38,281 nt of DNA from a virus (lineage: Duplodnaviria; Heunggongvirae; Uroviricota; Caudoviricetes): positions 1 to 38,281 of the IMG/VR virus record IMGVR_UViG_2737471992_000010. One strand, given 5' to 3'. The notes beneath the pieces were generated by a model. The model did no database searches. It saw only the letters and a list, made by a program, of their open reading frames with translations, and was not told the DNA's origin. The position numbers were made by a program, and so were the translations under genes. Positions 1,140 through 38,281 of this stretch are shown here, one piece after another; position 1 is the first letter of the stretch; every line of letters starts with the position of its first letter.

Positions 1140-1288
1140 GTTCATTCATAGTGCAGGGTCAAATCATTCCCACTCAATTATTTACGGATACCATAACCAA
1201 TTGAGTGATAACACTTTTCCAAATCTCAATTTTCCTCGTACCGTTTTATATACCGTCACAGGAAATCAGTACCATGAAAAATGCTATG

Positions 1289-1771
1289 CTATCTGGTCAG
1301 GGTGTCATACTGTTTTTCGCAGACTCTTCCGGCTGCGGCTGCCCGGTCAGCATACTCTGCCAGTTGTCTGTTTCTCTCGAGAGATTTGCTGAGCACGTCG
1401 GCAAGCAAAACTCCGGTGTCTGCGGCTGACGTCCCAGCGCCGACAATGGCGTTATACTGCCTGAGCTGCTCACGGATGGCAAAGAGTTGTTGCTGCAACC
1501 TGCCAGCGCGAGCGGCAGCATCAAGAGCATCATTGCGCGCCTGGTCGATCCTCTGCTGAGCTTCACGTTCATTGGTCGCTTTCTCCTGTTCGTAGTGCTG
1601 ACGAACTCTCTCATCTTCAGCTTTGCGGTCTTCCTTCGCCTGCGCATACCCGGCATCGTACTGGCGACTGCCGTGTATATTCCAGGCAACCACTCCGACG
1701 ATGAACAGAGCAGCAAGCATCAACACAATAAGCATCTGTTTCCAATATGCTTTTACGAATGCCCAGATCAT
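1289..1771 (-). CDS. Rz-like i-spanin
   Basis: 160 aa; N-terminal transmembrane segment (LIVLMLAALFIVGVVAW) then charged coiled-coil periplasmic domain; start overlaps the endolysin stop; contains an embedded +1 frame lipoprotein ORF. Confidence 0.7.
   Translation of the reverse strand: MIWAFVKAYWKQMLIVLMLAALFIVGVVAWNIHGSRQYDAGYAQAKEDRKAEDERVRQHYEQEKATNEREAQQRIDQARNDALDAAARAGRLQQQLFAIREQLRQYNAIVGAGTSAADTGVLLADVLSKSLERNRQLAEYADRAAAAGRVCEKQYDTLTR
1297..1533 (-). CDS. Rz1-like o-spanin embedded in Rz in another frame
   Basis: Internal Met of ORF 1297..1716 gives about 78 aa beginning MMLLMLPLALAGC (lipobox LAGC) with a Pro-rich mature part; exact start uncertain (1533 or 1572). Confidence 0.55.
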   Translation of the reverse strand: MMLLMLPLALAGCSNNSLPSVSSSGSITPLSALGRQPQTPEFCLPTCSANLSRETDNWQSMLTGQPQPEESAKNSMTP

Positions 1772-2397
1772 ATAGCCAGCACCTTACTGGCAGTGACGTA
1801 CCGCGCGCGCCGGTCGTCGATGCCGTTCCGGCCACCATTGATAATCAGAGTTACACGTGCAATATCGCCGGTATACTTCATGCATCCTTTGCTGGCAAAG
1901 AACCACGCCGCGCTACGAGCCGCGTATTCGTCCTGCGCCAGCAGTTCAGGACTCTCCAGCAGGTCAACCTTAAGACCGTTTCCACAGTCACGATAGTTAT
2001 TCAAACCGGTAATCTGGATAAGTCCGCGACCACGGTAATTCCAGCCATCACCAGAGGCATTGTTACCCATGCGTTTGCTGTACACCAGATTTGCGATCGC
2101 GCGCTGGCGCTCGAGTGGCAATGGTGGCTCACCAGCACGGCGGCCCAGTGCGTTAGCCTGTCCCTGGGTGAGACGCCCAGCCCGAACGAAGTTAGCCAGT
2201 CCGGTGACGCTGTAGTTGAAATTTTCCTGCAACCGGTTGAAGCCACCAGACTCATGCCCGACCTGAGCAATAAACATTGCCTGATCTTCGGGTTTGCTGA
2301 TACCAAACTCTTTCATCGCAGAAGTTATATGCGAGAACCAGCGTGCGGCCAGCGCCTCGCTAATACCAGCAGCTCGCTGGAATTGTTTAATCTCCAT
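1768..2397 (-). CDS. Endolysin, glycoside hydrolase family 19 (chitinase-like) type
   Basis: 210 aa from the internal Met MEIKQFQRAAGIS; motifs QVGHESGGF, NYRGRGLIQITG, INGG.NG match GH19 phage endolysins; GAGG RBS upstream of ATG at 2397; the longer track ORF to 2628 looks like a spurious N-terminal extension. Confidence 0.85.
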   Translation of the reverse strand: MEIKQFQRAAGISEALAARWFSHITSAMKEFGISKPEDQAMFIAQVGHESGGFNRLQENFNYSVTGLANFVRAGRLTQGQANALGRRAGEPPLPLERQRAIANLVYSKRMGNNASGDGWNYRGRGLIQITGLNNYRDCGNGLKVDLLESPELLAQDEYAARSAAWFFASKGCMKYTGDIARVTLIINGGRNGIDDRRARYVTASKVLAI

Positions 2398-2695
2398 GTT
2401 TAGACCTCGATATTTTGAAAATATGAACAACGTTACCGCGTGTTTTAATAACCGCGGCAAGCATGACAGCGTTGATAATGACCTCAGATAAATCCACAGC
2501 CATTGGCGTGCGTAACCAGATTGCATAGACGACACGAACAGGAATACTTGCCGCAGCAACAATAAGGAAATAAGCAAGCCACCCTCCCCATCTTCGATGT
2601 TGAGAGCCGTTACGCCGGAATGTGACAACGCGAATTGCTATGCCAGTACAAATAACTGCATTGGTGATAAGCAAAAAAAACTCATGCGTTACCAT
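2387..2695 (-). CDS. Small membrane protein within the lysis cassette (holin or antiholin-like)
   Basis: 102 aa with 2-3 hydrophobic segments; GGAG RBS upstream; overlaps the holin stop and the endolysin start. Confidence 0.45.
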   Translation of the reverse strand: MVTHEFFLLITNAVICTGIAIRVVTFRRNGSQHRRWGGWLAYFLIVAAASIPVRVVYAIWLRTPMAVDLSEVIINAVMLAAVIKTRGNVVHIFKISRSKHGD

Positions 2696-3086
2696 CGTCT
2701 TTTCTCCCCGGAATTAACTCGCGTGGATTATCGGAACGGTGATAGAGCCAGATGCCAATACGCACGGCGACAATTGCTGACACGAATGCGCCTGCAGAGA
2801 AAACAATCCCTTTTTCAAAAGAGTCCTGCGTGATGGTAGGGATCAGGCTGGCTATGCCGATAAGAATTGATGCTGCTGGTTTGTAAAAGAGAAGGCCGCA
2901 AAGAAAGCTGAGCATCGACAGGAGCACCCGGCGACGGATGGGGTACTCTACTGCAGAGGTAACAAAAATTACCGCCCCAGCCAAAGCCCCTAAAGCAACC
3001 TCCGGAGGGACACCTGCAATAACCGCAGCAAGAGAACTAACACTAAGCCACTGATTTGAAGTTTCATTGGTTAGTTGGAATGACAT
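2682..3086 (-). CDS. Putative holin
   Basis: 134 aa, three predicted transmembrane segments, first gene of the lysis cassette directly downstream of the tail fiber gene. Confidence 0.55.
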   Translation of the reverse strand: MSFQLTNETSNQWLSVSSLAAVIAGVPPEVALGALAGAVIFVTSAVEYPIRRRVLLSMLSFLCGLLFYKPAASILIGIASLIPTITQDSFEKGIVFSAGAFVSAIVAVRIGIWLYHRSDNPRELIPGRKDDGNA

Positions 3087-3158
3087 AACGAAACCCGTTT
3101 ATTTGCAAACACCCTGCTTCAGGAAAAGTATACCGCGCAACAACACACCATTTACGGT

Positions 3159-5621
3159 TCAATTCCCTGTTAATTGCAAAACTTGCTCTTCCAGCTTTTT
3201 AACCCTGCGTCTCATCATCGCAGATTCCAGAATCAGAGCCTCTTCATAACGGATACCGTAACATTCACCAGCCTCGACGGCTTCGCGTACCAGAACCTTT
3301 GTCTGTATAAGTGGGTAAACTCCTGCAGAATGCTCTTCTTCCGTCACATCCCTGTATTCTGCCGGGGTCTCATTCCACTTGTCATAACAGATAAATGCCA
3401 GTCGTGACACATCTATGCCTTCATTCTGAAATACACTGATAACATGCTGCGCAACTGCACCAAAGTGCCATCTTGCTCCGTCTTTACCTTTCACTTCGAT
3501 CCTGTCAAGGTACTGGTATGAAACCCATTCCACTCTTTCCCATGCGTCCAGTATTTTCTCATCAATAACCTCTGGAGCAGTCTTGAAACGCGCATCGGAC
3601 AGCACCGTAAACGCTGACTGGGTAAATCCCCCCGACCATGCACGACCAGCCAACCCAAGAGAATAAGTATTCGTTGTCGATGGTGTCATGGCTGAATCAG
3701 AAAACTGTATATATTCTGAATTTCCAGTAGATATTCGAATATTTCCATTTATTAGCGACATAGTGCCTTTAGTATTATCACTATTGAATAATTTCAATTG
3801 CGAACTTATACCGCCTCCCACAGCCAGAGATACATCGCCTTCAGCAAGCATTCTGAATTTATCTGCAGAAACAAGCGTCTGGTTAGCAAGGTTAAAATAT
3901 TTAACCCACCATTCAAAACGCCCTGACATAGTCCCAACGTACTGACCAAGCGCAGGGACGTGAACAACATTGCTATTTGTAGTGCCGTCTATACTGGAAA
4001 TACCAGTCACCGCTGATGCAGAACTCAGAATATTATTTCTGTCACCCGGATGTTTAATTTCAACAAAGTTCCTGATACACCCTTCCTCGAAGGTAACCAC
4101 GCCGGAAGAACTATACATGGGGAATATTGACGCATAATTACTGCGTGCAGCATCTAAGAAACGAATGGTTGTAGATGTCTGCAGATCTCCTGATTCATTT
4201 TTCCCATCACACCCAGTCATTAGAATATTACTGGCAATATTATTATTTCCCTGAACGGTGACTCCGTGCGCCTGCTTTGCGTCCGATTCAGAGTAATCAA
4301 CCAGCACATTCGAAATCAGGTTACCAGTCCCCTTGCCAACAACTACTGCGGCGTATTTTGGGTTGTTAGCCATTACACTGCTAATGATATTATTCGTTGG
4401 GGCAGTTTCCGTCTCAGTTCCATTGTAAACAACGTGCTGACACTCTTCACCAATAACATTGCTGACAATGTTATATTTTGCTGCTGTTTTAAGTTCCACT
4501 GCACCAAACTGAGGATAATTTCTGGCTATCACACCATCAATTAGCGTATTTTGCGATGAATCAAAAAGCACACAACCTGCTTTTTTATTATTTGCGAACC
4601 CTAAATACTCTCCTCTTATATCTCTAACAATGTAACCTGACGGAATACCATTATTCGGATAAGCGATCAAGCTAAATCCTGTTCCTCGCGTATTTGTAAA
4701 TCTGATATTTTTAACCGATACATCATGGCCACCTGAAAATGACACCTGGTGTCCCTGCACACTATCATCTGATTTATTTCCCATAATTGTTAGCGTACTA
4801 AGCATGCCACCATCGGGCATGTTAAAAACCAGATGATTACCATCTCTGTCATACTGTTTTATCGTTCCCCCACCTGTTCCGTACAAGCCACAACGTGAAA
4901 GAGAAACTAAAGATGTATTGAATACCCCTTCCGGAACAAAAACACTGCTAAACGAATGTAATGATTTTGTAAAAGCATCCTTGTTATCATTTAAGATTCC
5001 ATTTTGAGCTCCAAAATCCTTAATGCTGACACCATCACGCATCTTATCCTGGAACGTTCTGTATACCGCTCCAGAACCATACTGAATAAACCAACCAAAA
5101 CCACCAATAACTCCGGCGATTGCAGCATCGACATAATTACGCATTGAGCGATTATTTACAGCGTCCTGCTCAAGTGATGGATCGGCAAGGTTAGATATTC
5201 TGTTTTGCTTTGCATCGTAATATTTTGCAAGCAAAGATGGTTTCATCAATGCACGTCTGAACCACCCAAAACATCGCTGGATCAGCATCGTCAGGTAGTC
5301 AAATGCATCCTCATGAACTTCGGGGAAAAATTTTCCCTGATTGCGAAGATCAGTCTCCTGCACCACATCAAGCACACGCTCTATCGTGATTCGCCAGCCA
5401 GCAGCAAGCGGCGACGGAAGAACCACTGCACCGCCACTATAAGTTCCCGCCCCTGTTACCGTATAACCAGCATCCAGCACTAGTTTTGTAACGTTACCGT
5501 TAAGGTCAGACACCTGAACAACCAGGTCGGATTTTTTGAAAATACGGAAGGTATACGGAAATGATGTCGTAACGCCGTTACCTGTGTATTCGTTGTGGTC
5601 AACTTCGGTTGAGACCGTCAT
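3159..5621 (-). CDS. Tail fiber/tailspike: T7 gp17-like N-terminal adaptor, beta-helix (depolymerase-like) body, C-terminal self-cleaving intramolecular chaperone (peptidase S74-like)
   Basis: 820 aa; N-terminus EYTGNGVTTSFPYTFRIF...LVVQV resembles the T7 tail fibre N-terminal domain; central Gly/Asn/Ser-rich repeats typical of right-handed beta-helix; C-terminal segment with SDARFK motif and coiled-coil tail characteristic of the endosialidase-type chaperone domain. Confidence 0.85.
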   Translation of the reverse strand: MTVSTEVDHNEYTGNGVTTSFPYTFRIFKKSDLVVQVSDLNGNVTKLVLDAGYTVTGAGTYSGGAVVLPSPLAAGWRITIERVLDVVQETDLRNQGKFFPEVHEDAFDYLTMLIQRCFGWFRRALMKPSLLAKYYDAKQNRISNLADPSLEQDAVNNRSMRNYVDAAIAGVIGGFGWFIQYGSGAVYRTFQDKMRDGVSIKDFGAQNGILNDNKDAFTKSLHSFSSVFVPEGVFNTSLVSLSRCGLYGTGGGTIKQYDRDGNHLVFNMPDGGMLSTLTIMGNKSDDSVQGHQVSFSGGHDVSVKNIRFTNTRGTGFSLIAYPNNGIPSGYIVRDIRGEYLGFANNKKAGCVLFDSSQNTLIDGVIARNYPQFGAVELKTAAKYNIVSNVIGEECQHVVYNGTETETAPTNNIISSVMANNPKYAAVVVGKGTGNLISNVLVDYSESDAKQAHGVTVQGNNNIASNILMTGCDGKNESGDLQTSTTIRFLDAARSNYASIFPMYSSSGVVTFEEGCIRNFVEIKHPGDRNNILSSASAVTGISSIDGTTNSNVVHVPALGQYVGTMSGRFEWWVKYFNLANQTLVSADKFRMLAEGDVSLAVGGGISSQLKLFNSDNTKGTMSLINGNIRISTGNSEYIQFSDSAMTPSTTNTYSLGLAGRAWSGGFTQSAFTVLSDARFKTAPEVIDEKILDAWERVEWVSYQYLDRIEVKGKDGARWHFGAVAQHVISVFQNEGIDVSRLAFICYDKWNETPAEYRDVTEEEHSAGVYPLIQTKVLVREAVEAGECYGIRYEEALILESAMMRRRVKKLEEQVLQLTGN

Positions 5622-5724
5622 GTTAAATCTCCAGATAGTCGCAGCACCCGTTGCGCCGCATATCTGGTTATTCTATTACCTGAAAAACCATATATGGATA
5701 AAAAGACTATAAATACCAATAGAT

Positions 5725-5741
5725 ATTACCTTTCGGGTAAT
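5725..5741. promoter_or_regulatory. 17-bp palindromic operator-like site ATTACC-TTTCG-GGTAAT
   Basis: Perfect inverted repeat in the divergent region between the tail fiber start (5621) and the small antirepressor-like gene (5817). Confidence 0.6.
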
Positions 5742-5779
5742 TTGCAAAACGTGCTGGATAGCAAACAAATTATTTGTTA

Positions 5780-5795
5780 CTGTATAAACATACAG
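5780..5795. promoter_or_regulatory. LexA (SOS) box CTGT-N8-ACAG
   Basis: Sequence tacTGTATAAACATACAGtt: perfect CTGT / ACAG half-sites with an AT-rich 8-nt spacer, 22 nt upstream of the ATG at 5817 and overlapping a TATAAA -10-like hexamer. Confidence 0.65.
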
Positions 5796-5816
5796 TTATT
5801 GCATGGAGAAGATAAG

Positions 5817-6074
5817 ATGCAGCAGTATCACTATCCACTGGAAGACGGATTTACCGAAAGGATTCACACGCCGGGAGGCGTCAGGTCACTGGTGGAGGGA
5901 TCGCACTTGATGAAATTACTCCGGGATCTCGATAAGGATGGATTTAATGTCGATGGCCCACTTGCCGAACTGACTGCACTGATTAACTACGTCACCAGCT
6001 CACAGATGTCTATGCGGGATCTGCAAACACATCTCGACTATTGTGCCGAACAATTACGAAAACAAACCAGATAA
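5817..6074 (+). CDS. Small protein paralogous to the C-terminal domain of the antirepressor (candidate LexA-controlled antirepressor)
   Basis: 85 aa from the internal ATG with GGAGAA RBS; aligns with residues about 140-218 of the 6392..7048 product (PLEDGF.ERIHTPGGV..L.EGSHLM.LL..L...G..V.G..AELT....Y). The track ORF from 5694 is an upstream extension without RBS. Confidence 0.6.
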   Translation: MQQYHYPLEDGFTERIHTPGGVRSLVEGSHLMKLLRDLDKDGFNVDGPLAELTALINYVTSSQMSMRDLQTHLDYCAEQLRKQTR

Positions 6075-6104
6075 GGTTTGCAATTACCAAATGGAGTGCT
6101 TATA

Positions 6105-6121
6105 TTTACCTTTGCGGTAAA
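6105..6121. promoter_or_regulatory. 17-bp palindromic operator-like site TTTACC-TTTGC-GGTAAA
   Basis: Perfect inverted repeat, itself nested inside a longer inverted repeat GGAGTGC (6093-6099) / GCACTCC (6130-6136). Confidence 0.55.
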
Positions 6122-6211
6122 TTTACATCGCACTCCTCTTGTGCCATAGTAATCGGGCACTGGCAAAATCCAGTGCCGGGATTGGTCTCCCGGATTACTA
6201 AGTGGCGCATA

Positions 6212-6233
6212 CCACGCCAGACGTGGTTTTTTT
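6212..6233 (+). terminator. Weak terminator-like hairpin plus U-tract
   Basis: CCACG-CCAGA-CGTGG followed by seven T; lies downstream of GC-rich hairpins at 6156-6193. Confidence 0.35.
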
Positions 6234-6391
6234 ATGCGTATAGCACAGTCATGCCAGAATTATGGTGGGCTGAATGGGGGTCCGAAAGGACGCCGGTACC
6301 ACTTAGGCCGGTAAGACCAACTCCGTTCAGTTCACCACCATCTGATTGGTCTCAGCGGTGGTGATGTAATTCGCTAAGTGGAGACGCCATC

Positions 6392-7048
6392 ATGAACGCT
6401 CAACTCATCCCCGTATTCAACGGCACTATATCTAACGAAACAGCCCTACTTTGTAATGCCCGCGATCTGCACGCTTTTTTAGGTGTTAAAAAGGTGTTTG
6501 CAGCATGGATTACAAATCGCATATCAGAATACGAATTCATTGAAAATCAAGACTATATTTTGCTTTCCAATTTGGGAAAGCAAACATCTGGTAGAGGCGG
6601 CCACAACCGCAAAGAGTACCACCTCACCCTTGATACAGCCAAAGAGCTGGCGATGGTCGAGCGTAACGAAAAAGGTCGTCAGGTGCGACGCTACTTCATT
6701 GAATGCGAGAAACGTTTAAGACAACAAGAAACAAAAGTGGAGAAGGTCTTGTCAGGCTTCATGCCCGCCATTATGGAGGCGATCAAGCTGGAAGACAAAA
6801 AAGAATACAGCGCCCCACTGAAGCCCGGCTACCGCAGCCTGATTCATTCTCCGTCTGGTGTTCTCGGCCTGACGGAGAACTCACTGCTGATGAATCTGCT
6901 GAACAAGTTACAGGAAGACGGGCACGATGTATCGGGCGCGGCAGCGGAGCTGACCACCATGTTCTGCTACATCGTCGGTGTGAGCAAATGCCTGCGTGAT
7001 ATCCAGACCCACGCGGAGTACATCAACGACAAGGCAGGGTTCTTCTGA
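6392..7048 (+). CDS. Antirepressor (AntA-type N-terminal domain plus C-terminal domain)
   Basis: 218 aa; N-terminal region (VFNGT...[29 protein letters not shown]) resembles AntA/AntB antirepressor domains; GGAG RBS 10 nt upstream. Confidence 0.75.
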
Positions 7049-7119
7049 CGGGCGGTGGCACAGGGATGTGCCTTTAAATAATTCTGTACAGATTGCAGAC
7101 TGTGGGTGAATAGCGTACT

Positions 7120-7136
7120 ATTACCTTAAAGGTAAA
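7120..7136. promoter_or_regulatory. 17-bp palindromic operator-like site ATTACC-TTAAA-GGTAAA abutting the RBS of the 7148 gene
   Basis: Inverted repeat whose right edge overlaps the AGGAGG RBS (7136-7141) of the ORF starting at 7148. Confidence 0.55.
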
Positions 7137-7147
7137 GGAGGCGCGAT

Positions 7148-7312
7148 ATGACAGCGTTGAAAAATCGTACTCAGCACAATGAACAAGCAAAGCAATGCTG
7201 GGATGTCATTGGAAAAGTTATGCTTGGCCGCGCAAGCAAAGAGCGCGACAAGGATATGGTTTACCAGACAGGAACATCTTTCAGCGACTTCAAGGCGGCA
7301 TTTCGCTCCAAA
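7148..7312 (+). CDS. Small basic protein (55 aa), unknown function; not in the supplied ORF track
   Basis: ATG at 7148 preceded by AGGAGG at 6-nt spacing; translation MTALKNRTQHNEQAKQCWDVIGKVMLGRASKERDKDMVYQTGTSFSDFKAAFRSK; stop TAG at 7310-7312. Confidence 0.45.
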
Positions 7313-7335
7313 TAGAAGCACATCAGGAGTTTTCC

Positions 7336-7776
7336 TTGAAGTTTAACATTAGAATATCTAATAGTTTTCTACATGGGGAAAGCAACACCCCTTTCGCTGT
7401 AGACGGACCTTTCCTTACTGATGATGAAATAAAAATCATACAAAGTTTTTTAGAGGATGTTGCCAATGGAAGGGCGCTTGTTGGAAAAAACAAGCCCTCG
7501 TGGGTTGATGATAACCATGATAAAATTCCCGGCTCAGACAATTATGAGCAAGAGAATTATTGGCATTATCATTGTGGGCCAACATGGTATCCAAACACAT
7601 TTAAGAATTATACCATTAACTTAAATTTCAACCCTGGCGGAAGGCATTCTAATGAATGCATTCATTATGCAAAAAATGATAATGAAATTGTCATTGTTGG
7701 ATTTTCAAGAGAACACATACCTTTCCTTTCATCAGATGGAAACAACAATCCGCTTTTTAATGATGAAGAAGAATAG
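7336..7776 (+). CDS. AT-rich accessory gene of unknown function, about 146 aa, probable TTG start
   Basis: Long ORF with visibly lower GC than its surroundings; no in-frame ATG after 7195; AGGAG RBS (7325-7329) 6 nt before TTG 7336; acidic C-terminus NDEEE; followed by a strong terminator. Confidence 0.5.
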   Translation: MKFNIRISNSFLHGESNTPFAVDGPFLTDDEIKIIQSFLEDVANGRALVGKNKPSWVDDNHDKIPGSDNYEQENYWHYHCGPTWYPNTFKNYTINLNFNPGGRHSNECIHYAKNDNEIVIVGFSREHIPFLSSDGNNNPLFNDEEE

Positions 7777-7796
7777 CCCGCGCTGCGGGCTTTTTT
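7776..7796 (+). terminator. Rho-independent terminator
   Basis: GCCCGC-GCT-GCGGGC stem-loop immediately followed by TTTTTT. Confidence 0.65.
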
Positions 7797-7868
7797 GTGG
7801 ACGAAACAAAAGTCAGTGCTACACTCATTGACGCCACATTGAGGTGGCTTATAGATGGAAATTTCACA

Positions 7869-8030
7869 ATGAAAAAAGCATTTGCTGCACTGTTCGTTTT
7901 GTTGTCTCTGGTAGCTTCAACTCAGGCCTTTGCCGGTCGTTGTCAGCACGACAGCGACACTGCCGCTGACGGCTCCCGCTGCGGTGGGCGTTCTGCGGAT
8001 TCCCGCCCGGGCGGCGGTGGCATTCGTTAA
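7869..8030 (+). CDS. Small secreted Gly/Arg-rich protein (53 aa)
   Basis: Internal ATG gives MKKAFAALFVLLSLVASTQAFA signal peptide then a short mature peptide; weak RBS, so the call is tentative. Confidence 0.35.
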   Translation: MKKAFAALFVLLSLVASTQAFAGRCQHDSDTAADGSRCGGRSADSRPGGGGIR

Positions 8031-8035
8031 AAACA

Positions 8036-8065
8036 AGGCCGCGAAAGCGGCCTGTGACATGTCAC
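8036..8065. terminator. Hairpin between convergent genes, possibly a bidirectional terminator
   Basis: AGGCCGC-GAAA-GCGGCCT stem-loop followed by palindrome GTGACATGTCAC and a T-rich run. Confidence 0.4.
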
Positions 8066-8358
8066 GTCCCTTTTCTGAATGATAGCCATTCGAAAAATGA
8101 TGACATTCCACCGCAGACAATAGCAAAGATGATCCCACCAAAGAAGAGAAGGCCAGCCTGCCACCACTCCCACCGCCATACATCCACAGCGCCAACCATA
8201 CCAACAATCGCTCCAACAAATGGAATATAGCTCACGATGAAAGCAATGGGGGCTGCAATTATCCAGTGCAATCCCCACCATGATTCAAGCCCAGCCATAA
8301 TTGCTGCCAACTGAAAAAGACCAACGACGATATAAACAATGAATCCTATAGCTTGCAT
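8062..8358 (-). CDS. Small integral membrane protein (98 aa), last gene of the virion operon
   Basis: AGGTGA RBS 6 nt upstream of ATG; three hydrophobic segments rich in Trp/Gly. Confidence 0.55.
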   Translation of the reverse strand: MQAIGFIVYIVVGLFQLAAIMAGLESWWGLHWIIAAPIAFIVSYIPFVGAIVGMVGAVDVWRWEWWQAGLLFFGGIIFAIVCGGMSSFFEWLSFRKGT

Positions 8359-19431: not shown

Positions 19432-19450
19432 AAGTTTCTATACTCCTGCA

Positions 19451-19470: not shown

Positions 19471-19487
19471 TGTCTGATTCGCGAGGC

Positions 19488-20271: not shown

Positions 20272-20322
20272 CTTCTTTCTCCATTAGTGGGTCTGTTACG
20301 ACCCACAGGTTAATAACAGGCG

Positions 20323-21315: not shown

Positions 21316-21323
21316 TTCCTCTC

Positions 21324-27890: not shown

Positions 27891-28236
27891 TCTGATTTTC
27901 CTGCATCATGAGAAATACAATCATGGCGGCTCGGAGTGGATTATTCGCATGAAAGCAAATGTTCTCGGCATTAAAAACAGCTGACCACTCACCGCGAGAG
28001 TGGTGGCAGGTTAGACTGATTTTATTATCAACAATAATAGGCCATGCATCCGATGGATTATTGCAGTAGTCAGGTAAAGGGTTTAATGGCTCAAAAGTTG
28101 TATCAGTATTTCCGTAATACCATTTGTTGGTGTTATTCCCTGATGTTTCCGGTTTACACGCCCAAAGGCCTTTAAAAATTATGTCTCCTACCATTCTGTT
28201 AATTTCAAAATCACTTAACTGTGAATAGTCCATCAT
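27883..28236 (-). CDS. NinX/DUF2591-like phage protein
   Basis: 117 aa; composition and length resemble the DUF2591 family of lambdoid nin regions (from memory). Confidence 0.4.
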   Translation of the reverse strand: MMDYSQLSDFEINRMVGDIIFKGLWACKPETSGNNTNKWYYGNTDTTFEPLNPLPDYCNNPSDAWPIIVDNKISLTCHHSRGEWSAVFNAENICFHANNPLRAAMIVFLMMQENQNG

Positions 28237-29147: not shown

Positions 29148-29148
29148 A

Positions 29149-29784: not shown

Positions 29785-30266
29785 TGGTTGCCCTCCTTCA
29801 TAAAAATAATCCAGTGGGTCTTGTCACCCTTTCCTGTTCGTTGACCGATAACAGGCTTTCTGTCTGTCAGTGCCAATATTTGGCGAACAGGTATTTGCGT
29901 TTCATTCCATTTAAAAATCAGAACACCATATGGCCACAACACACGAAAGGCTTCTTTAAATCCCTGCCGCAAATCATCACGCCAGGTATCTTTATTCAGC
30001 CGTCCATATTTCTTTCCCATCCAGGCGTTATCACCAACACGCTCAAGATGCGGAGGGTCGAATACAACAACCGGAAACGATGCGTCTGCAAATGGTAATG
30101 CACGAAAATCTGCTATCAGGTCAGGGCTAATTATCAGCCGTCGGCCATCACACAATATGTGATCTTCCTTTCTGATATCGCTAAATATCGCCCGGTCGTC
30201 CTTCTTATCGAACCAGAACATGCGACTGCCACAGCACATGTCGAGGATTGCTGCATGTCCAGTCAC
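29781..30266 (-). CDS. Small orphan DNA methyltransferase (amino-methyltransferase type, DPPH motif)
   Basis: 161 aa; SAM-binding-like LDMCCGSR near the N-terminus and catalytic-type tetrapeptide DPPH (VVVFDPPHL); no adjacent restriction gene. Confidence 0.55.
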   Translation of the reverse strand: MTGHAAILDMCCGSRMFWFDKKDDRAIFSDIRKEDHILCDGRRLIISPDLIADFRALPFADASFPVVVFDPPHLERVGDNAWMGKKYGRLNKDTWRDDLRQGFKEAFRVLWPYGVLIFKWNETQIPVRQILALTDRKPVIGQRTGKGDKTHWIIFMKEGNQ

Positions 30267-30919
30267 TGGTTGCCTCCTTTGCGAAGCTGGGCGGCAAAGT
30301 CAGTCGCATGCTCACCGAGTAGTTTCCAGTTATCGCGTATATCAGATGCAAGCGACTGTTCGGATTTTGAGTTACATTTCTGTGCAAACATCTCCAATCC
30401 CTGCGCCCGCACTTCAGCCAGGCATTTGCGAAACTCGGAAACGTACTGTTCGACGCTCATTCCCCAGCTAAGTGGACATTCATTGAATGTTTCGCCTTCG
30501 TGCTCTTCATCAGGTAGCTCTTTGGTAAAGAACTCACGTTCAATGGCGTGGAGTGTGTCAGCAAAACGACGTAAGTTACTCAAACCTGTCGTAATGGAGA
30601 ATTCAGGAGCATCACATCCGACGCCCATCTGCTGATAAACGGCGGTTTTGAAGGCCTTAAGCCCCGCATTCTCCGCTGCCAGCGCCGAAAACTTCTCATG
30701 TGCCAACTTAACAGCCGAATCAGCCTGCTTAATTGACTCAATCGCTCTCTGGTGGTCTTCGGCCAGCGCATTAGCACGCACCAGTTGCACTTCCAGTTGC
30801 GTTGCCAAATCGCTGATCAGCTTTGTCACACTGCGCATATCAACGGCACCACATTCTGCTTTCAGTTCCGAAGCCATCTCATGCCCGGCGGCAACTAACC
30901 CTTTGATATTACTTTCCAT
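30263..30919 (-). CDS. Ead/Ea22-like hypothetical protein
   Basis: 218 aa, coiled-coil rich N-terminal half; overlaps the downstream methylase start. Confidence 0.4.
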   Translation of the reverse strand: MESNIKGLVAAGHEMASELKAECGAVDMRSVTKLISDLATQLEVQLVRANALAEDHQRAIESIKQADSAVKLAHEKFSALAAENAGLKAFKTAVYQQMGVGCDAPEFSITTGLSNLRRFADTLHAIEREFFTKELPDEEHEGETFNECPLSWGMSVEQYVSEFRKCLAEVRAQGLEMFAQKCNSKSEQSLASDIRDNWKLLGEHATDFAAQLRKGGNQ

Positions 30920-30980
30920 CTTTACCCTCGCTTATCCACATAACTTATTGATTACACTGATAACTAAAAAGATCGTCGAT

Positions 30981-31325
30981 TCAGAACTCTTCGATGTTCC
31001 AGCCACCACCTGCTTTCTTTGGCTTAACCGTTACCCCGATGATTCGGAACGGATACTGATCTGCGGCGACTTTGGTTTTCACCCTGGCGTCGTCGGTCCA
31101 GAAACCTTTCACTTCGTGCAGTTCCATCTCGCCGGTGGCGAGCATCACAGCAAAATCGGGCGTATAGAACGTGTTGTCAGCTAACCGCAACTTGATACCC
31201 TCGAATCGATACCAGGCGATTTCCCCTGCACGTTTACGCTGCTCAAGGTGCTGGCAATACGCAGATTCTGTTTTGTTCATCTGGCCTGTTTTGAGTCGAC
31301 CAAGAGCCTGCATCTGTTTTCTCAT
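30981..31325 (-). CDS. DUF1064-family phage protein
   Basis: 114 aa; pattern NKTE..Y...LE..K.AGEI..Y.FE.IKL.LA...YTPDF.V...GE.E.HEVKG typical of DUF1064 proteins found next to phage replication genes. Confidence 0.6.
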   Translation of the reverse strand: MRKQMQALGRLKTGQMNKTESAYCQHLEQRKRAGEIAWYRFEGIKLRLADNTFYTPDFAVMLATGEMELHEVKGFWTDDARVKTKVAADQYPFRIIGVTVKPKKAGGGWNIEEF

Positions 31326-33406: not shown

Positions 33407-33637
33407 TCATGAGTAGAAGAAGTATGCCAGTTCTGCTTTTGAGCGCAGCCATTGTCTTGATTTACAGGCTTTAAAAAGCCCATTCATCAATACCTTACCT
33501 GGCATTTTGCGCTTACCTGTTAAGTGAGTCTGGATATAGTGACTCGTCGTTCCGGCTTCCTGTGCGAAGGCTTCACGCTCATCCGGAGTAAGTGCAAGCC
33601 AGTGCTTTTTGAAATCGAAATGTCCGTTATCGCTCAT
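33407..33637 (-). CDS. Cro/CII-like HTH regulator
   Basis: 76 aa; HTH-like segment FAQEAGTTSHYIQTHLTGKR; transcribed divergently from the repressor gene across the operator cluster. Confidence 0.5.
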   Translation of the reverse strand: MSDNGHFDFKKHWLALTPDEREAFAQEAGTTSHYIQTHLTGKRKMPGKVLMNGLFKACKSRQWLRSKAELAYFFYS

Positions 33638-33672
33638 AGCTATTGCCTGATATTTATTTCAGATAATAAATA

Positions 33673-33737
33673 TTCACCTATAAGGTAACAAAAATCAAGG
33701 ATAGTTACCCATGAGGTGCATTTACCTGTTGGGTAAT
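33673..33737. promoter_or_regulatory. OR-like operator cluster: three 17-bp sites (33673-33689 TTCACC-TATAA-GGTAAC; 33704-33720 GTTACC-CATGA-GGTGCA; 33721-33737 TTTACC-TGTTG-GGTAAT)
   Basis: Three tandem copies of the palindrome in the 154-bp divergent region between the Cro-like gene (start 33637) and the repressor gene (start 33792). Confidence 0.6.
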
Positions 33738-33791
33738 ATTGCTTTAAATTGAATCATCTTCTGATTCAGATATGAGGCGATTTTCCAGAAA

Positions 33792-34376
33792 ATGAAAAGT
33801 ATCCAGGACGTCCGCAGGCAAAATCTCAACGACTTGATCGACCGTGAATTCAATGGTGTTCAGACGCGGATGGCTGAAAAACTTGGAACTCAGGCAAATC
33901 TGGTAAACCGCTGGGCTCTTGGCAAGAAGGTTATCGGCGACCAGGTTGCGCGAAAAATTGAAGCTGCCGCCAATAAACCCCGTAACTGGCTTGATATCGA
34001 TCGCTCGCTTTCTCAGGAAGGTTTTCAGCCTGTCGGACCAAGCGACATTGGTCAACTGGCGGCTCACAACCTGGAACGCTGGATGAGCGAAAGCCGCGAC
34101 CTTTCAACGCAGGGAAAACTTCACCGCGCATCCGGCGTCGCCCAGGTAACAATCAGCCGCCTGTTAAACAATGAGGTCAGCGTTTCCATTTCCACCCTGG
34201 AGAATGTTGCATCCGCATTTGGGCGTCACGGATATGAATTACTGATTCACCCGCACGACCCCGCGACTATCAACTATGACCGCTCGCGCTACGCATTGTT
34301 ACCTGAAACAGAGAAGGCAAAGATCGAAAGTTACATTGAATTTGTCATCAACCAGAACGAAAAAAACAAACAATAA
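33792..34376 (+). CDS. Prophage repressor with two HTH (XRE-type) domains and no peptidase S24 domain
   Basis: 194 aa; two HTH-like segments (QTRMAEKLGTQANLVNRWALGKK and HRASGVAQVTISRLLNNEVS); no Ala-Gly/Ser-Lys autocleavage module; sits between OR-like and OL-like operator clusters. Confidence 0.65.
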   Translation: MKSIQDVRRQNLNDLIDREFNGVQTRMAEKLGTQANLVNRWALGKKVIGDQVARKIEAAANKPRNWLDIDRSLSQEGFQPVGPSDIGQLAAHNLERWMSESRDLSTQGKLHRASGVAQVTISRLLNNEVSVSISTLENVASAFGRHGYELLIHPHDPATINYDRSRYALLPETEKAKIESYIEFVINQNEKNKQ

Positions 34377-34529: not shown

Positions 34530-34682
34530 ATGCAGTGGAAAATCATCAACGGTTGGTACTGCGTTACTGCATGCGGATTCATGAGCTGGAAGTTCCGCAC
34601 CTTACAGGAAGGCATTAAGTGGGCTTTCGTCAGCAAAGAAGCTCGCGATGTGGCCAACGATAACGAGATATGGGAGGGCTGA
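34530..34682 (+). CDS. Small Trp/Cys-containing protein (51 aa), first gene of the rightward early operon; not in the ORF track
   Basis: ATG with GAGG RBS at 9-nt spacing; MQWKIINGWYCVTACGFMSWKFRTLQEGIKWAFVSKEARDVANDNEIWEG; stop TGA 34680-34682. Confidence 0.45.
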   Translation: MQWKIINGWYCVTACGFMSWKFRTLQEGIKWAFVSKEARDVANDNEIWEG

Positions 34683-34684
34683 TA

Positions 34685-34984
34685 ATGAACGTTAATCAGC
34701 AGAAAAATCTTCAAAAAATCATGCTGGCATTCGACAAGGACTACCGCCTGTCAGAACAGCTATATGACCGACAAGTTGAACTGATTGAGAGTATCCGGCT
34801 TCATCAACTGGCATCAACTTTCGACGTTGTAACAGTTAAAGGCGTTCGCCAGGAAGTACTGGAGGCCGCTAAAGACAGTCCAGAGTTCGAAGAACTGATG
34901 GATTCCTACCGGCGCGAGGCAATGGCAATTATCGCCCGCTGGGATCTGGCTGATCAGCTTGATGGGCAGAGGGACGCGGCATGA
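34685..34984 (+). CDS. Hypothetical early protein
   Basis: 99 aa from ATG 34685 with GGGAGGG RBS; the track start at 34670 lies inside the RBS. Confidence 0.5.
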   Translation: MNVNQQKNLQKIMLAFDKDYRLSEQLYDRQVELIESIRLHQLASTFDVVTVKGVRQEVLEAAKDSPEFEELMDSYRREAMAIIARWDLADQLDGQRDAA

Positions 34985-35802
34985 AACCGGGAATTTATTT
35001 CGATATCAGCAACGAGGACTACCACGCCGGTGACGGCGTGAGTAAGTCGCAGCTAGATATGGTGGCTAAGAACCCTGCCCTTCTGAAATGGGTGAAGGCT
35101 GCTCCGGAAGACGAAGAGAAGAAGTCTGCACTGGACATGGGTACTGCTCTGCACTGTCTGCTTCTGGAACCTGGAGAGTTTGACAAACGCTTCATCGTTT
35201 CACCGAAATTCGATCGTCGGACAAAACAAGGTAAAGCTGACGAAGAGGCATTTATTCGTGATGTAGCGGATATGGGGATTTCGGTACTTGATGCAGAGCA
35301 GTGGCGAAAACTGGAGCTGATGCGTGATAGCGCAATGGCTCACCCGGCGGCACGCTGGATGTTGGAAGCACCTGGTTACTGCGAAGCATCAATGTACTGG
35401 AACGATGAAGAGACGGGTGAGTTGTGCCGAATTCGTCCAGACAAATGGCTGAACGAGCACAACGTGATCGTCGACGTGAAAAAGGTTGCAGATATGGACC
35501 GTTTTGCACGCCACATCGAGGAATTCCGCTACCACGTGCAGGACGCAATGTACCGCGAAGGCGCAATGAGGGTTACTGGTCAGCCGCATGGTTTTTTCTT
35601 TCTTGCCGTGAGCGAAAGCATTGATTGTGGTCGGTATCCGGTACGCGTGTTCGAGCTGGATGCGCAGGATGTCGATGCCGGGCACGCTCTGTTCCGCCGG
35701 GATCTGAATACCTATCACGAATGCCGCATCAATGATGAATGGGGCGGTGTGGAAATCATTAAACGCCCTGAGTGGGCACGCAAACAGGATATGTACATAT
35801 GA
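34981..35802 (+). CDS. Recombination exonuclease, PD-(D/E)XK (YqaJ/RecE-like) family
   Basis: 273 aa; candidate catalytic D...(V/I)VDVKK motif; directly coupled to the annealase gene. Confidence 0.6.
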   Translation: MKPGIYFDISNEDYHAGDGVSKSQLDMVAKNPALLKWVKAAPEDEEKKSALDMGTALHCLLLEPGEFDKRFIVSPKFDRRTKQGKADEEAFIRDVADMGISVLDAEQWRKLELMRDSAMAHPAARWMLEAPGYCEASMYWNDEETGELCRIRPDKWLNEHNVIVDVKKVADMDRFARHIEEFRYHVQDAMYREGAMRVTGQPHGFFFLAVSESIDCGRYPVRVFELDAQDVDAGHALFRRDLNTYHECRINDEWGGVEIIKRPEWARKQDMYI

Positions 35803-36740
35803 GCAACGACATCGCAAACATCAACGCACCAGTAGACACAGCAATCGCTGGAACTGCTGCAACTATTTTCAGCCCAGACGGCTTGAACCAACTGATGAAA
35901 TTCGCCGAGGTAATGGCGCAAAGCCGCGTAACGGTACCGGCGCACCTCGCCGGGAAACCAGCTGATTGCATGGCCGTGGCAATGCAGGCTGCGCAGTGGG
36001 GAATGAACCCGTTTGCCGTGGCTCAGAAAACCCATGTTGTGAACGGCACGCTAGGTTATGAAGCCCAATTAGTAAACGCAGTTATCTCAACGATGTCGCC
36101 AACAAAAGATCGCATCAACTACGAGTGGTTCGGGCCGTGGGAACGCGTGATCGGTAAGTTTGTTGAGAAAACATCCAAAAACGGCAATCCATATATCGCA
36201 CCAGGCTGGACTCTAAAAGACGAAGAAGGCTGCGGTGTTCGCGTATGGGCAACCATGAAGGGCGAGGATCAACCTCGAGTGCTTGAGTTAATGCTGTCTC
36301 AAGCACAGGTAAGAAACTCCACACTTTGGGCCAGTGATCCGAAACAACAACTCGCATACCTTGCGACAAAACGCTGGTCTCGCCTGCACTGTCCTGACGT
36401 AATCATGGGCGTCTACACCCCAGACGAATTACAGGAAACGGCACCGCGCGTTGAGCGAGACATTACTCCGCAAACGACCACTGCTGCGGGAATGAACAGT
36501 CTGATCAACGCTAAACCAGCGAAAAAGCCTGATGAGCAAACGCGTAAATCGGACAGCCGTGATCCAGAAGAAATGCTGATGGCCTTTACCAGCGCAGCGA
36601 TGAATTACAGCACTGTCTCCGAACTGGATAAGGCTTACAAATACATTGCACAAAAACTTTCAGATGATGACGAACTGCTGGCAAAAGCCACCGACGTTTA
36701 CAGCGTTCGTCGGGAAGAATTAAACGAAACATCTATGTAA
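35799..36740 (+). CDS. Single-strand annealing protein, Bet/RecT-like
   Basis: 313 aa from ATG 35799 (overlaps exonuclease stop as ATATGA); QWGMNPF and ERDITP segments echo lambda Bet QYGLNPW and ERDITP. Confidence 0.6.
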   Translation: MSNDIANINAPVDTAIAGTAATIFSPDGLNQLMKFAEVMAQSRVTVPAHLAGKPADCMAVAMQAAQWGMNPFAVAQKTHVVNGTLGYEAQLVNAVISTMSPTKDRINYEWFGPWERVIGKFVEKTSKNGNPYIAPGWTLKDEEGCGVRVWATMKGEDQPRVLELMLSQAQVRNSTLWASDPKQQLAYLATKRWSRLHCPDVIMGVYTPDELQETAPRVERDITPQTTTAAGMNSLINAKPAKKPDEQTRKSDSRDPEEMLMAFTSAAMNYSTVSELDKAYKYIAQKLSDDDELLAKATDVYSVRREELNETSM

Positions 36741-36789
36741 CCACCACCGCGGCGCCACGCGCGCCGCACTGCAACCAAGAGAGGTATTT

Positions 36790-37038
36790 ATGAAAGGTGC
36801 ATTAGGTAAGAAGGAACTCCTGGCGGTGGTTCCACTGTCATGGAGCACTATCGACCGTATGGAGCGCGCAGGGGAATTTCCTAAACGCTGGTATATCACC
36901 GATAAACGCTGCGCATGGAACCGTGATGAAGTTGAGCGTTGGCTTGATGAACGTCAGGCAGCAAGCCCGGCAGAGTTCCAGGGTAAAAAACCTCCTGTTC
37001 AGCAACGTGTATATCGTCCCGTGAGCAACGCGGCATGA
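36790..37038 (+). CDS. AlpA-family HTH protein (excisionase/regulator-like)
   Basis: 82 aa; GAGAGG RBS; segment LLAVVPLSWSTIDRMERAGEFPKRWYITDKRCAWNRDEVERWL fits the AlpA/Xis-type winged-HTH pattern. Confidence 0.6.
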   Translation: MKGALGKKELLAVVPLSWSTIDRMERAGEFPKRWYITDKRCAWNRDEVERWLDERQAASPAEFQGKKPPVQQRVYRPVSNAA

Positions 37039-37147
37039 GTGTGCTGCTAAGGCACTGGAGCAAATGGTCAGGATGGTACTTATTCCTGGCCTCTGTTTCA
37101 GCATGGCTTTATCTGCTGGCATTAATTTTCAGAGAGGGTTGGATTAA

Positions 37148-37447
37148 GTGAGAAAGTTAAGCCGACTTGAAAAATATCACATGAACAAGGTTTCAATGCG
37201 CAGTCCGTCAAAGATTGTCGCCGTTACTCCTGCGGCGATAGAGATCGAAAAACGCGCGATTGAAAGAGAGAAAAAAGGGCAGTTCCGCATTGCCGCTCAC
37301 CTTTGGCTTCAGTGTATGGATGTTGCTTCTGGTGATGTTGAGCGTGCAAGGATCGCGGTTCGCAGGGACCAATGTATCACAAAAGGTAACGGCCTTCGCC
37401 GTGGCGACTATAGCGGCATAGGATGTTGTGGGGTGGTTTATGACTAA
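37148..37447 (+). CDS. PerC-family transcriptional regulator-like protein
   Basis: Segment EKKGQFRIAAHLWLQCMDV...ERARIAVRRDQC fits the PerC/Pch pattern (KG..RRAA..W......ER..I..RR..C); GTG start at 37148 assumed, true start may be internal. Confidence 0.45.
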   Translation: MRKLSRLEKYHMNKVSMRSPSKIVAVTPAAIEIEKRAIEREKKGQFRIAAHLWLQCMDVASGDVERARIAVRRDQCITKGNGLRRGDYSGIGCCGVVYD

Positions 37448-38090
37448 GAAATACACACTAATCTATGCAGATCCACCCTGGGTATACCGGGACAAAGCCG
37501 CAGATGGTAATCGCGGTGCCGGTTTTAAATATCCGGTTATGAGTGTGCTGGATATCTGCCGCCTTCCTGTGTGGGATTTGGCCGATGAAAACTGTCTGTT
37601 GGCCATGTGGTGGGTGCCAACACAACCACTCGAAGCACTAAAAGTTGTTGAGGCCTGGGGATTCCGTCTGATGACCATGAAGGGATTCACGTGGATAAAA
37701 TGTGGTAGTCGACAACCAGATAAACTGGTTATGGGTATGGGGCACATGACTCGCGCCAATAGTGAAGATTGCCTGTTTGCAGTTAAGGGAAAACTACCTA
37801 CGCGCATTAATGCAGGGATCGTTCAGTCATTTACCGCACCGCGGCTTGAGCATTCAAGAAAACCAGATGTCGTTCGTGAAAAACTTGTGCAATTGTTAGG
37901 CGATGTTTCTCGCATTGAACTGTTCGCCCGCCAGTCGTCTCATGGCTTCGATGTTTGGGGTAATCAGTGCGAAGACCCGGCCGTGCAACTACACCCAGGA
38001 TACGCGTTGGATATTGGCGGATTAACAAATGCATTCAGCAATGCTCCGCTGTCACCAACAGACAACCAGGGACGGGAGCGTGCAGCATGA
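37440..38090 (+). CDS. DNA N6-adenine methyltransferase, MT-A70 family (orphan)
   Basis: 216 aa from MTKKYTLIYADPPW; catalytic DPPW motif near the N-terminus as in MT-A70 phage methylases; no restriction partner nearby. Confidence 0.7.
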   Translation: MTKKYTLIYADPPWVYRDKAADGNRGAGFKYPVMSVLDICRLPVWDLADENCLLAMWWVPTQPLEALKVVEAWGFRLMTMKGFTWIKCGSRQPDKLVMGMGHMTRANSEDCLFAVKGKLPTRINAGIVQSFTAPRLEHSRKPDVVREKLVQLLGDVSRIELFARQSSHGFDVWGNQCEDPAVQLHPGYALDIGGLTNAFSNAPLSPTDNQGRERAA

Positions 38091-38281
38091 ACAGGGCATC
38101 ACCTGCAGATTTAAGGAAATGCCTTGAAACTGCAAACATGCTTGCACATAGTGGGATCAGGTTTGTTCCAATTCCCGCTGTCACTGATGATGAATTTGCA
38201 ACGCTGTCAGCAATATTCGCAGACAAAATTGAATCACTGGCAGCAGAAGCAGAGATGGAAGAAAATCAGCAGAATAATTAA
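38087..38281 (+). CDS. Small hypothetical protein (64 aa)
   Basis: ATG overlaps the methylase stop (ATGA); ends with TAA exactly at the window edge. Confidence 0.4.
   Translation: MNRASPADLRKCLETANMLAHSGIRFVPIPAVTDDEFATLSAIFADKIESLAAEAEMEENQQNN

Follow-up and report, generated by a model that had tools for sequence, protein, structure and literature searches.

Positions 1 to 38,281 of the IMG/VR record IMGVR_UViG_2737471992_000010, a stretch of 38,281 nucleotides referred to here as the window, very probably comprise almost all of an apparently intact Uetakevirus prophage—a temperate podovirus of the phiV10/epsilon15 kind—seated in an Escherichia coli chromosome. An initial annotation of the same DNA had presented a noteworthy mosaic, in which a T7-like virion module lacking an RNA polymerase was joined to lambdoid control and replication modules. 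What emerges instead is the standard architecture of Uetakevirus, with 98% identity of virion DNA to phiV10 and its relatives, and that architecture is already known: the genus is named, has type phages and cryogenic electron microscopy (cryo-EM) structures, and is represented by hundreds of sequenced prophages. That the virion genes are those of a well-known temperate podovirus group is one half of what the initial annotation had itself listed as telling against its proposal.

The closest relatives were identified by comparing three parts of the window (1-8500, 8500-27600 and 27600-38281) by megablast with 50,697 phage records. The central part, which holds the 19-kb virion module, is 97.6-98.2% identical over 97-100% of its length to vB_EcoP_ZX5, O157 typing phages 9 and 10, phiV10, phiv142-3, PAS61 and HEMP4 (for phiV10, 98% is covered at 98.1%), with identity of 82% to Enterobacter phage Tyrion and of about 76% to Salmonella phage epsilon15. 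The right arm matches phiV10 at 97.7% identity across 73% of its length, and segments of it also match several hundred Shiga toxin (Stx) and lambdoid phages at 90-99%. Variation is greatest in the left arm: its best match, phiv142-3, covers 63% at 96.6%, and phiV10 covers 37% at 89.8%. A P22-like or Stx-phage-like identity is ruled out, since near-full-length DNA matches come from Uetakevirus records only. The weak matches to the central part include 64 Synechococcus phage records, for which a tRNA gene is the likely cause.

At the level of genes, 46 of 55 queried phiV10 coding sequences find a match in the window by tblastn in conserved order, an order that epsilon15 shares. Between the terminase genes and p20 of phiV10, 18 genes have a match, all of them full-length; identity is 94-100% for 17 and 71% for p03, and the staple gene p13 alone goes unmatched. 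The gene order of the genus—small terminase subunit (terS), large terminase subunit (terL), portal, head, tail, ejection proteins, in some cases an antirepressor, tailspike, lysis, integrase and early genes—is matched by the window, and the taxonomy lines of the phiV10 and epsilon15 records read Uetakevirus. The International Committee on Taxonomy of Viruses draws the genus line at about 70% (genome length x identity) and the species line at 95%. By a rough estimate, overall similarity to the nearest isolates is about 78-83%, above the genus line and below the species line, and the prophage would be another species-level variant inside Uetakevirus. The virion expected for the genus, short-tailed with six tailspikes and an internal core, is indirectly supported by close homology to the solved portal, connector, nozzle and tailspike chains of PDB 8CK0 and 8CK1, which appear to be tail structures of a close relative.

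The left boundary of the prophage falls within the window. Bases 1-1161 lie outside the phage and comprise, on the plus strand, the annotated host genes yfgH (1-516) and yfgI (532-1071) with their terminator; 5422 of 5426 complete E. coli genomes contain them. Phage similarity begins at 1162, where host similarity stops, and the element accordingly starts at its attachment-site (att) core and not at 1141, as had been proposed. The core occupies 1162..1178 at the lysis-gene end and reads AATCATTCCCACTCAAT on the minus strand, the reverse complement of ATTGAGTGGGAATGATT. In a related prophage of a complete genome (E. coli WP4-S17-ESBL-03), the integrase lies beside guaA at one end and the lysis genes beside yfgI at the other, with the 17-bp direct repeat ATTGAGTGGGAATGATT at both prophage ends, overlapping the guaA stop codon. 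Found independently by repeat search, this core agrees with the literature, which gives it as the attP/attB core for phiV10, epsilon15 and ZX5 (PMC9782041). The yfgI-phage junction occurs as here in 523 of the 5426 complete genomes (matches covering at least 80% of positions 1-3200); about 10% of these genomes carry such a prophage at this site. At the other edge, position 38,281 is the stop codon of a DUF1382 gene that directly precedes the integrase in phiV10. By analogy, the integrase and the second junction, at the guaA 3' end, should lie just past 38,281; the integrase is absent because the window ends at a neighbouring gene boundary, and its absence is therefore no defect.

Several points nevertheless weigh against this identification or narrow its compass. 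The integrase and second junction fall outside the window, leaving one of two junctions inside it, and the window lacks the capsid staple gene that phiV10 and most of the other examined relatives possess. Its pairing of accessory block and tailspike recurs exactly in no phage or complete-genome record; the nearest genome covers 92% of positions 3100-8600 at 98% identity, and the left-arm combination is ordinary module shuffling within the genus. The prophage is read from sequence alone, and the evidence for inducibility comes from relatives, among them ZX5, whose lysogens release 1e7 plaque-forming units/mL (PMC9782041). The K5 specificity proposed for the tailspike draws on its likeness to a solved K5 lyase, and neither the adaptor's homology to T7 gp11 nor that of the large ejection proteins to gp15/gp16 reaches significance in this analysis.

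Loss of the capsid staple gene

The staple gene gp10 (p13 of phiV10, 324 nucleotides) is missing from the junction at 19432..19490 on the minus strand, between the gene for a 114-residue protein and the adaptor gene. Aligned with phiV10, the window cleanly lacks the segment between the starts of p13 and p14, tblastn with p13 against the window returns no match, and the adaptor start codon still has an intact ribosome-binding region in front of it. In epsilon15, the gp10 staple clamps the shell. Other E. coli genomes share the loss: gp10 is carried by 433 of the 519 complete E. coli genomes with the region, leaving about 86 without it by subtraction of search counts, and at least 30 E. coli genomes match the window's gp10-less junction in one piece at 99.1%. 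The sewage isolate EC.W1-9, the only phage record to share this junction (99.1% identity), has no gp10 anywhere in its genome. Two IMG/VR contigs (L030 and L031) also lack the gene.

Such a loss could be read as one sign of decay in a defective prophage that yields no particles. The deletion itself would fit, as would the roughly 86 of 519 gp10-less genomes, which could mark a non-functional lineage, and the lack of a visible integrase in the window. Yet the other structural, lysis, replication and immunity genes are full-length, with phiV10 counterparts 80-100% identical except p03 at 71%; the deletion is clean and a sewage phage has the same junction; and the integrase is missing merely since the window stops short of it. 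We therefore consider a decayed element highly improbable. The gp10-less form is probably a viable lineage rather than a product of decay.

A more specific proposal follows for the capsid. A phiV10-like sub-lineage may build stable, infectious capsids without the gp10 staple, relying on the Bbp16-type cement protein alone, a proposition to which we would give about even chances; the same holds for the membership it implies, namely the window prophage, about one-sixth of those in complete E. coli genomes, and EC.W1-9. If true, the staple would be dispensable or conditionally useful, and these phages offer a natural test of the need for a capsid staple protein.

Kinship of the virion module with T7

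The initial annotation had read the virion genes as following the T7 plan, and the extent of that likeness depends on which genes are considered and on the sensitivity of the method. Pairwise comparison gave almost nothing: T7 proteins searched against the window by tblastn all returned E of at least 0.06, no window protein exceeded 10 bits (phmmer) or fell below E 0.7 (blastp) against its T7 counterpart, and the sole stray match paired the window portal with T7 gp16 (blastp E 3e-4). Family profiles were built from 80 diverse viral contigs encoding relatives of the window's tail nozzle (31-99% identity) and compared with T7, both by hmmsearch against the T7 genome translated in six frames (207 segments) and by hhalign, for which negative-control pairs gave E 0.18-0.6.

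At this level, the portal, the nozzle, several ejection proteins and the N-terminus of the tailspike, all encoded on the minus strand, do show kinship. The 559-residue portal protein (22315..23994), which matches the 8CK0 portal at E 5e-179, shares Pfam family PF12236 with T7 gp8 (623 vs 379 bits) and aligns with it by hhalign over 442 columns (probability 97%, E 7e-11). The relation to gp8 put forward initially is thus upheld, although the likeness, said to lie in the C-terminus, spans nearly the whole length and exists at the profile level only. In the position of tail tubular protein A (T7 gp11) stands a head-to-tail adaptor of 201 residues (18826..19431; PDB 8CK1_E "Connector Protein", E 2e-26; PHROG tail / tail tubular protein), whose match to T7 gp11 is weak (hhalign E 0.035); the epsilon15 RefSeq record notes an HHpred match of its gp11 to T7 tubular protein A. 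In the position of tubular protein B (T7 gp12) is the 823-residue tail nozzle (16355..18826; PDB 8CK1_A "Tail Nozzle", E 4.7e-217). T7 gp12 is the only significant hmmsearch match of the nozzle profile in the T7 translation (E 1e-5, next 0.044), and hhalign aligns residues 291-570 with 306-601 (E 2.8e-4, probability 41%), the same central domain reported by Hardies et al. (2016; PMC4819975), who found a strong match between epsilon15 gp12 and T7 gp12 in comparison of hidden Markov models. Pfam gave no match of adaptor or nozzle to the T7 "Tube" or "Phage_nozzle" families at E <=10; the relation of these two proteins to T7 rests on profile comparisons and the literature. An AlphaFold2 model of the nozzle, built from 19 homologues that were all at least 82% identical, was unusable (mean predicted local distance difference test score, pLDDT, 40; predicted template modelling score, pTM, 0.26). 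The nozzle family is large, with 18,306 cluster representatives at E <=0.001 and 9,153 at E <=1e-30 in a library of 1.84 billion proteins, and many members bear insertions of 100-300 residues relative to the window nozzle.

Five internal virion proteins follow the nozzle, in keeping with the four to five initially counted after tubular B; the tailspike comes after them, beyond an accessory block on the plus strand. The first, of 154 residues (p16 in phiV10; 15891..16355), picks out T7 gp13 as its top open reading frame (ORF) by hmmsearch (E 2e-10; hhalign probability 96%, E 2.4e-9). The second, of 181 residues (p17; 15346..15891), reaches 31.2 bits in the Pfam family T7_gp14 (PF24072; cut-off 27), to which T7 gp14 also belongs. 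Third is a protein of 837 residues (12833..15346; p18 of phiV10, 99% identical, and gp15 of epsilon15) that probably carries a lytic transglycosylase region: residues 246-393 match the PHROG "tail injection transglycosylase" family at E 2.9e-22 and the epsilon15 gp15 record cites lytic transglycosylase B, with no match to Pfam SLT. The 600-residue fourth protein (11034..12836; p19, 98% identical, and epsilon15 gp16) would be an internal virion protein by its position and by PMC4819975. The fifth and last, a large ejection protein of 824 residues (8554..11028; p20, 99.5% identical, and epsilon15 gp17; PHROG virion structural protein), is a candidate counterpart of T7 gp16, although the hhalign match is weak (E 0.0085) and the large ejection proteins otherwise correspond to those of T7 by position. 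Finally, the N-terminal family of the tailspike finds T7 gp17 as its top hmmsearch match (E 3.5e-6) and aligns with the gp17 N-terminus over 140 columns (hhalign probability 89%, E 2e-6); the Pfam Phage_T7_tail score of the tailspike itself, 18.8 bits, is under the cut-off of 25.2.

Sizes and alleles of the ejection proteins differ among otherwise near-identical prophages. Those of 837, 600 and 824 residues here (8554-15346, minus strand) have as counterparts proteins of 873, 565, 849 and 186 residues in the WP4-S17-ESBL-03 prophage (its positions 25326-32758) and of 191, 915, 1129 and 283 residues in EC.W1-9 (18159-25723).

The head shell and packaging enzymes, also on the minus strand, are another matter. 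The small terminase subunit (26837-27511; Pfam Terminase_2) and large subunit (25365-26840; PHROG terminase large subunit) are 99.6% identical to phiV10 p01/p02 and have no pairwise similarity to T7 gp18/gp19 by tblastn, phmmer or blastp, profiles not having been compared for this pair. A five-gene head-shell cassette (19488..22318) encodes a Bbp19-like protein (22022-22318; Pfam Phage_Bbp19), the scaffold/protease (21324-22025; PHROG protease), the major capsid protein (20323-21315; Pfam GP7, E 7e-149; PDB 3J4U and 3J40), a Bbp16-family cement protein (19834-20271; Pfam Bbp16, E 1e-45) and the 114-residue protein without assigned function (19488-19832). Neither hmmsearch nor hhalign gave any signal linking the capsid, the scaffold or the 837- and 600-residue proteins to T7 gp10, gp9 or gp15/gp16 (hhalign E 0.21 for both capsid and scaffold), and the capsid families differ, being GP7 of the epsilon15/BPP-1 type here and Gp10A-like in T7. 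Between the terminase and portal genes lies a tRNA-Arg gene with anticodon TCT (24643..24719, plus strand; ARAGORN; Rfam tRNA 73.3 bits), also annotated in the O157 typing phages and in the WP4-S17-ESBL-03 prophage. It overlaps the 3' end of an ORF at 24649-24900 on the minus strand that is annotated as hypothetical protein p04 in phiV10.

The comparisons indicate that the T7 plan holds for the portal, tail and ejection genes, where the order and several distant homologues support it, and is unsupported for the head shell and packaging enzymes, where capsid, cement protein, scaffold and terminase lack any detectable link to T7. The remaining parts of the initial description stand: the terminase genes precede the portal gene, the lysis cassette follows the tail-fibre gene, and no phage RNA polymerase is present, T7 gp1 matching the window by tblastn at E 0.79 at best and all ORFs above 800 residues being assigned otherwise. 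Searches with T7 gp4 primase-helicase and gp5 DNA polymerase by tblastn were likewise negative (best E 3.9 and 0.084).

None of this kinship is new. Hardies et al. (2016; PMC4819975) treated the T7-type set of tail and ejection genes as a "transient tail homology group", identified epsilon15 gp17 as a homologue of internal virion protein (IVP)-D, T7 gp16, named gp15/gp16 as IVP-C candidates, and grouped the epsilon15 terminase and capsid with those of siphoviruses; the T7 kinship of tail and internal virion proteins in the epsilon15 group has thus been known since 2016. In a 2022 review (PMC8954989), epsilon15 appears among the phages credited with ejection proteins of the gp14/gp15/gp16 type, and the NCBI Prokaryotic Genome Annotation Pipeline (PGAP) already uses the names "virion core protein, T7 gp14 family", "Bbp16 family capsid cement protein" and "capsid staple protein" in the WP4-S17-ESBL-03 prophage, giving the first of these to the counterpart of the 181-residue protein.

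The T7-like order of portal, tail and ejection genes goes back to an ancient common ancestry, which most short-tailed phages share, and not to a recent fusion. That a new chimera arose here, in which a lambdoid prophage received an Autographiviridae structural module recently stripped of its RNA polymerase, is scarcely credible: the T7 gene order from portal to tail fibre, the several proteins in T7-named families and the long near-identical early segments shared with Stx/lambdoid phages would fit, but recent T7 parentage is rejected because the counterparts have no pairwise similarity to T7, while the capsid and scaffold are unrelated even at the profile level, the terminases show no similarity, and the same architecture, described in 2016, recurs in epsilon15, phiV10 and 80 diverse viral contigs. 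In practical terms, a prophage with "T7-like order" will usually prove to be of the epsilon15, P22 or F116 groups and not something new.

Tailspike, control modules and a proposed life cycle

The tailspike (3159..5621, minus strand; 820 residues) had been called a gp17-type tail fiber. Its N-terminal anchor, at about residues 1-180, is indeed of the epsilon15/gp17 type and matches the 8CK1 tailspike chain (E 6.5e-30), but the protein as a whole is a tailspike, with a K5-lyase-type beta-helix at about 199-675 and a C-terminal intramolecular chaperone at 675-735 and beyond (Pfam Peptidase_S74). It matches the K5 lyase of PDB 2X3H at E 5.8e-185, with most aligned residues identical or similar, and the tail spike of PDB 9VVR at E 1e-225; it is also 100% identical to WP_000218900.1 of the WP4-S17-ESBL-03 prophage. 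The predicted receptor is a capsule of the K5 (heparosan) type. Only 72 nucleotides (3087-3158) separate the tailspike gene from the lysis cassette, with no O-antigen modification gene among them; in the same slot phiV10 has the oac acetyltransferase and epsilon15 three conversion genes.

The lysis cassette (1289..3086, minus strand) consists of four genes and an embedded Rz1, 80-97% identical to phiV10 p27-p30a and named in agreement by PGAP in the WP4-S17-ESBL-03 prophage: a membrane protein or putative holin (2682-3086), a holin (2387-2695), a GH19 endolysin (1768-2397) and the Rz spanin (1289-1771), with Rz1 inside it at about 1297-1572.

On the far side of the tailspike gene, a variable accessory block (5694..8358) runs mostly on the plus strand, opposite to the virion genes. 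It opens with a p24-like ORF (5694-6074), followed by an isrK-like RNA (6157-6233; Rfam isrK 67.7 bits) and a C4 antisense RNA (6258-6342; Rfam C4 61.2 bits), both above their gathering scores and directly upstream of an AntA antirepressor gene (6392-7048; Pfam AntA; PHROG anti-repressor Ant). Antisense-controlled antirepressor modules are known from P1/P7, and the isrK/C4-AntA arrangement resembles them, which suggests RNA control of the antirepressor. A 107-residue ORF at 6041-6364 that overlaps the two RNA matches has no family match and is probably no gene. The block ends with ORFs without assigned function at 7195-7776 and 7797-8030 (plus strand) and 8062-8358 (minus strand).

The control and replication genes had been described as lambdoid, and for the repressor, the Cro-like gene, the iterons, the lambda-P-family protein and AlpA this description is sound. 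In the immunity switch (33407..34376), a Cro-like gene (33407-33637, minus strand) and a repressor gene (33792-34376, plus strand; PHROG transcriptional repressor) are divergently transcribed (Pfam HTH_3) and are 98.7% and 100% identical to their respective counterparts in the p40/p41 pair of phiV10. The initiator (32225-33040, minus strand) is O-like by PHROG only ("replication initiation O-like", E 4e-19), Pfam giving HTH_36 and DnaT. Inside its gene, at 32634-32786, lie six iterons of 18-24 nucleotides (repeat family D1/D2, core TCCCGTTTTTGGGA), and next to it on the same strand is the gene of the lambda-P-family protein (31443-32243; Pfam Phage_lambda_P, E 1.5e-56). The Red-like exonuclease and annealase of the initial annotation proved to be a different pair, a RecE-like exonuclease (34981-35802, plus strand; Pfam DUF3799, PDDEXK) and RecT (35772-36740, plus strand; Pfam RecT), and not lambda Red. 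Here and in most relatives the two ORFs overlap in different frames; phiV10 is annotated with a single 586-residue fusion, which is either real or a frameshift in that record.

The two genes belong to the left-arm early genes (34530..38281, plus strand), which begin with two small ORFs, are 97-100% identical to phiV10 p32-p39 and continue with an AlpA-family regulator/excisionase (36790-37038; Pfam Phage_AlpA), a PerC-family activator (37148-37447), an MT-A70 methyltransferase (37428-38090; Pfam MT-A70) and the DUF1382 gene (38087-38281), after which the integrase comes next in related phages. The right-arm early and accessory genes (27552..31325, minus strand) form the least conserved region relative to phiV10. 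Along with Ea22/ead-like genes and unassigned ORFs, they include a regulator of 112 residues just upstream of terS (27552-27890; PHROG transcriptional regulator, E 2.5e-54), a methyltransferase-like ORF (29781-30266; PHROG DNA methyltransferase matches) and a DUF1064 gene (30981-31325; Pfam). Pfam and PHROG scans of the submitted early-region ORFs, which did not include every small ORF, found no N- or Q-family match.

What is established directly comprises the genes present, the att core, the iterons and the protein families; on this basis and from relatives a life cycle can be proposed. A P4-type tyrosine integrase, expected outside the window, would recombine the 17-bp core ATTGAGTGGGAATGATT at the guaA 3' end. 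Lysogeny would be held by the cI-like repressor facing the Cro-like gene, with a possible second control point in the antirepressor preceded by isrK-like and C4-type antisense RNAs. Upon induction, the O-like initiator would bind the iterons in its own gene, the lambda-P-family protein would load the host helicase, and RecE/RecT would supply recombination. Because there is no phage RNA polymerase, the late operon would have to be transcribed by the host polymerase, probably aided by the small regulator upstream of terS. Terminase would then pack DNA into a shell of epsilon15/BPP-1-type capsid protein and Bbp16-type cement, lacking the gp10 staple, to which a tail of portal, adaptor, nozzle and tailspikes would be fitted. 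At the next infection, the tailspike should cut a K5 (heparosan)-type capsule, and the five internal proteins—gp13-like, gp14-like, transglycosylase-bearing and two large—would be ejected to form a DNA channel, as in T7 and P22.

Comparison with known phages

With T7, the window shares the order portal, scaffold, capsid, adaptor, nozzle, gp13-like, gp14-like, large ejection proteins and gp17-anchored fibre. It differs in having the terminase before the portal and not, as in T7, at the genome end, an additional cement protein and a temperate lifestyle, and in having neither an RNA polymerase nor a T7-type DNA polymerase or primase-helicase. With the lambdoid phages (lambda, Stx, P22), it has in common the divergent repressor and Cro, in-gene iterons followed by a lambda-P-family protein, Ea22/ead genes, an antirepressor, the holin-endolysin-Rz/Rz1 set and stretches of DNA shared at 90-99% identity with many Stx and Salmonella phages. 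In contrast to those phages, its initiator is of the HTH_36 and DnaT type, outside the Pfam lambda O family, its recombination genes are RecE/RecT rather than Exo/Bet, one small regulator stands before terS, and the Uetakevirus group uses a P4-type integrase with a guaA site.

Bordetella phage BPP-1 and Burkholderia phage BcepC6B, which Hardies et al. place with epsilon15 in one structural group, share the Bbp16 cement and Bbp19-like proteins with the window, whereas hosts and early regions differ and the window has no diversity-generating retroelement. For the window capsid, the BPP-1 structure (3J4U, E 1e-128) gives a better score than that of epsilon15 gp7 (3J40, E 2e-85). Epsilon15 itself, the type member and a cryo-EM model system, shares module order and att core, along with proteins as similar as the portal (81% identity), adaptor (85%), nozzle (88%) and large terminase (94%). 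Its head-shell cassette has diverged, however (capsid 43%, cement 37%; window 19488-21315 against epsilon15 5951-8040), as have the large ejection proteins (28-59%); its O-antigen conversion genes have no equivalent in the window, and its replication module is different, the epsilon15 record holding no lambda-P-family gene.

Closest of all is the phiV10 group (ZX5, typing phages 9 and 10, phiv142-3, PAS61, HEMP4, TL-2011b and EC.W1-9), with the same gene order and att core; phiV10 itself has an identical repressor, about 98% identical virion DNA and lysis proteins at 80-97%. The differences from phiV10 are those of individual modules: gp10 is absent, RecE and RecT are encoded by separate ORFs, several genes of the Ea22 region are different, the antirepressor is AntA with isrK/C4 RNAs rather than Bro-N, no O-acetyltransferase gene lies beside the tailspike, and the receptor-binding part of the spike is of the K5-lyase type where that of phiV10 is O157-specific. 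With a K5-capsule lyase spike and no O-antigen modification gene, the window prophage provides a clean example of how module swapping retargets a single phage chassis.

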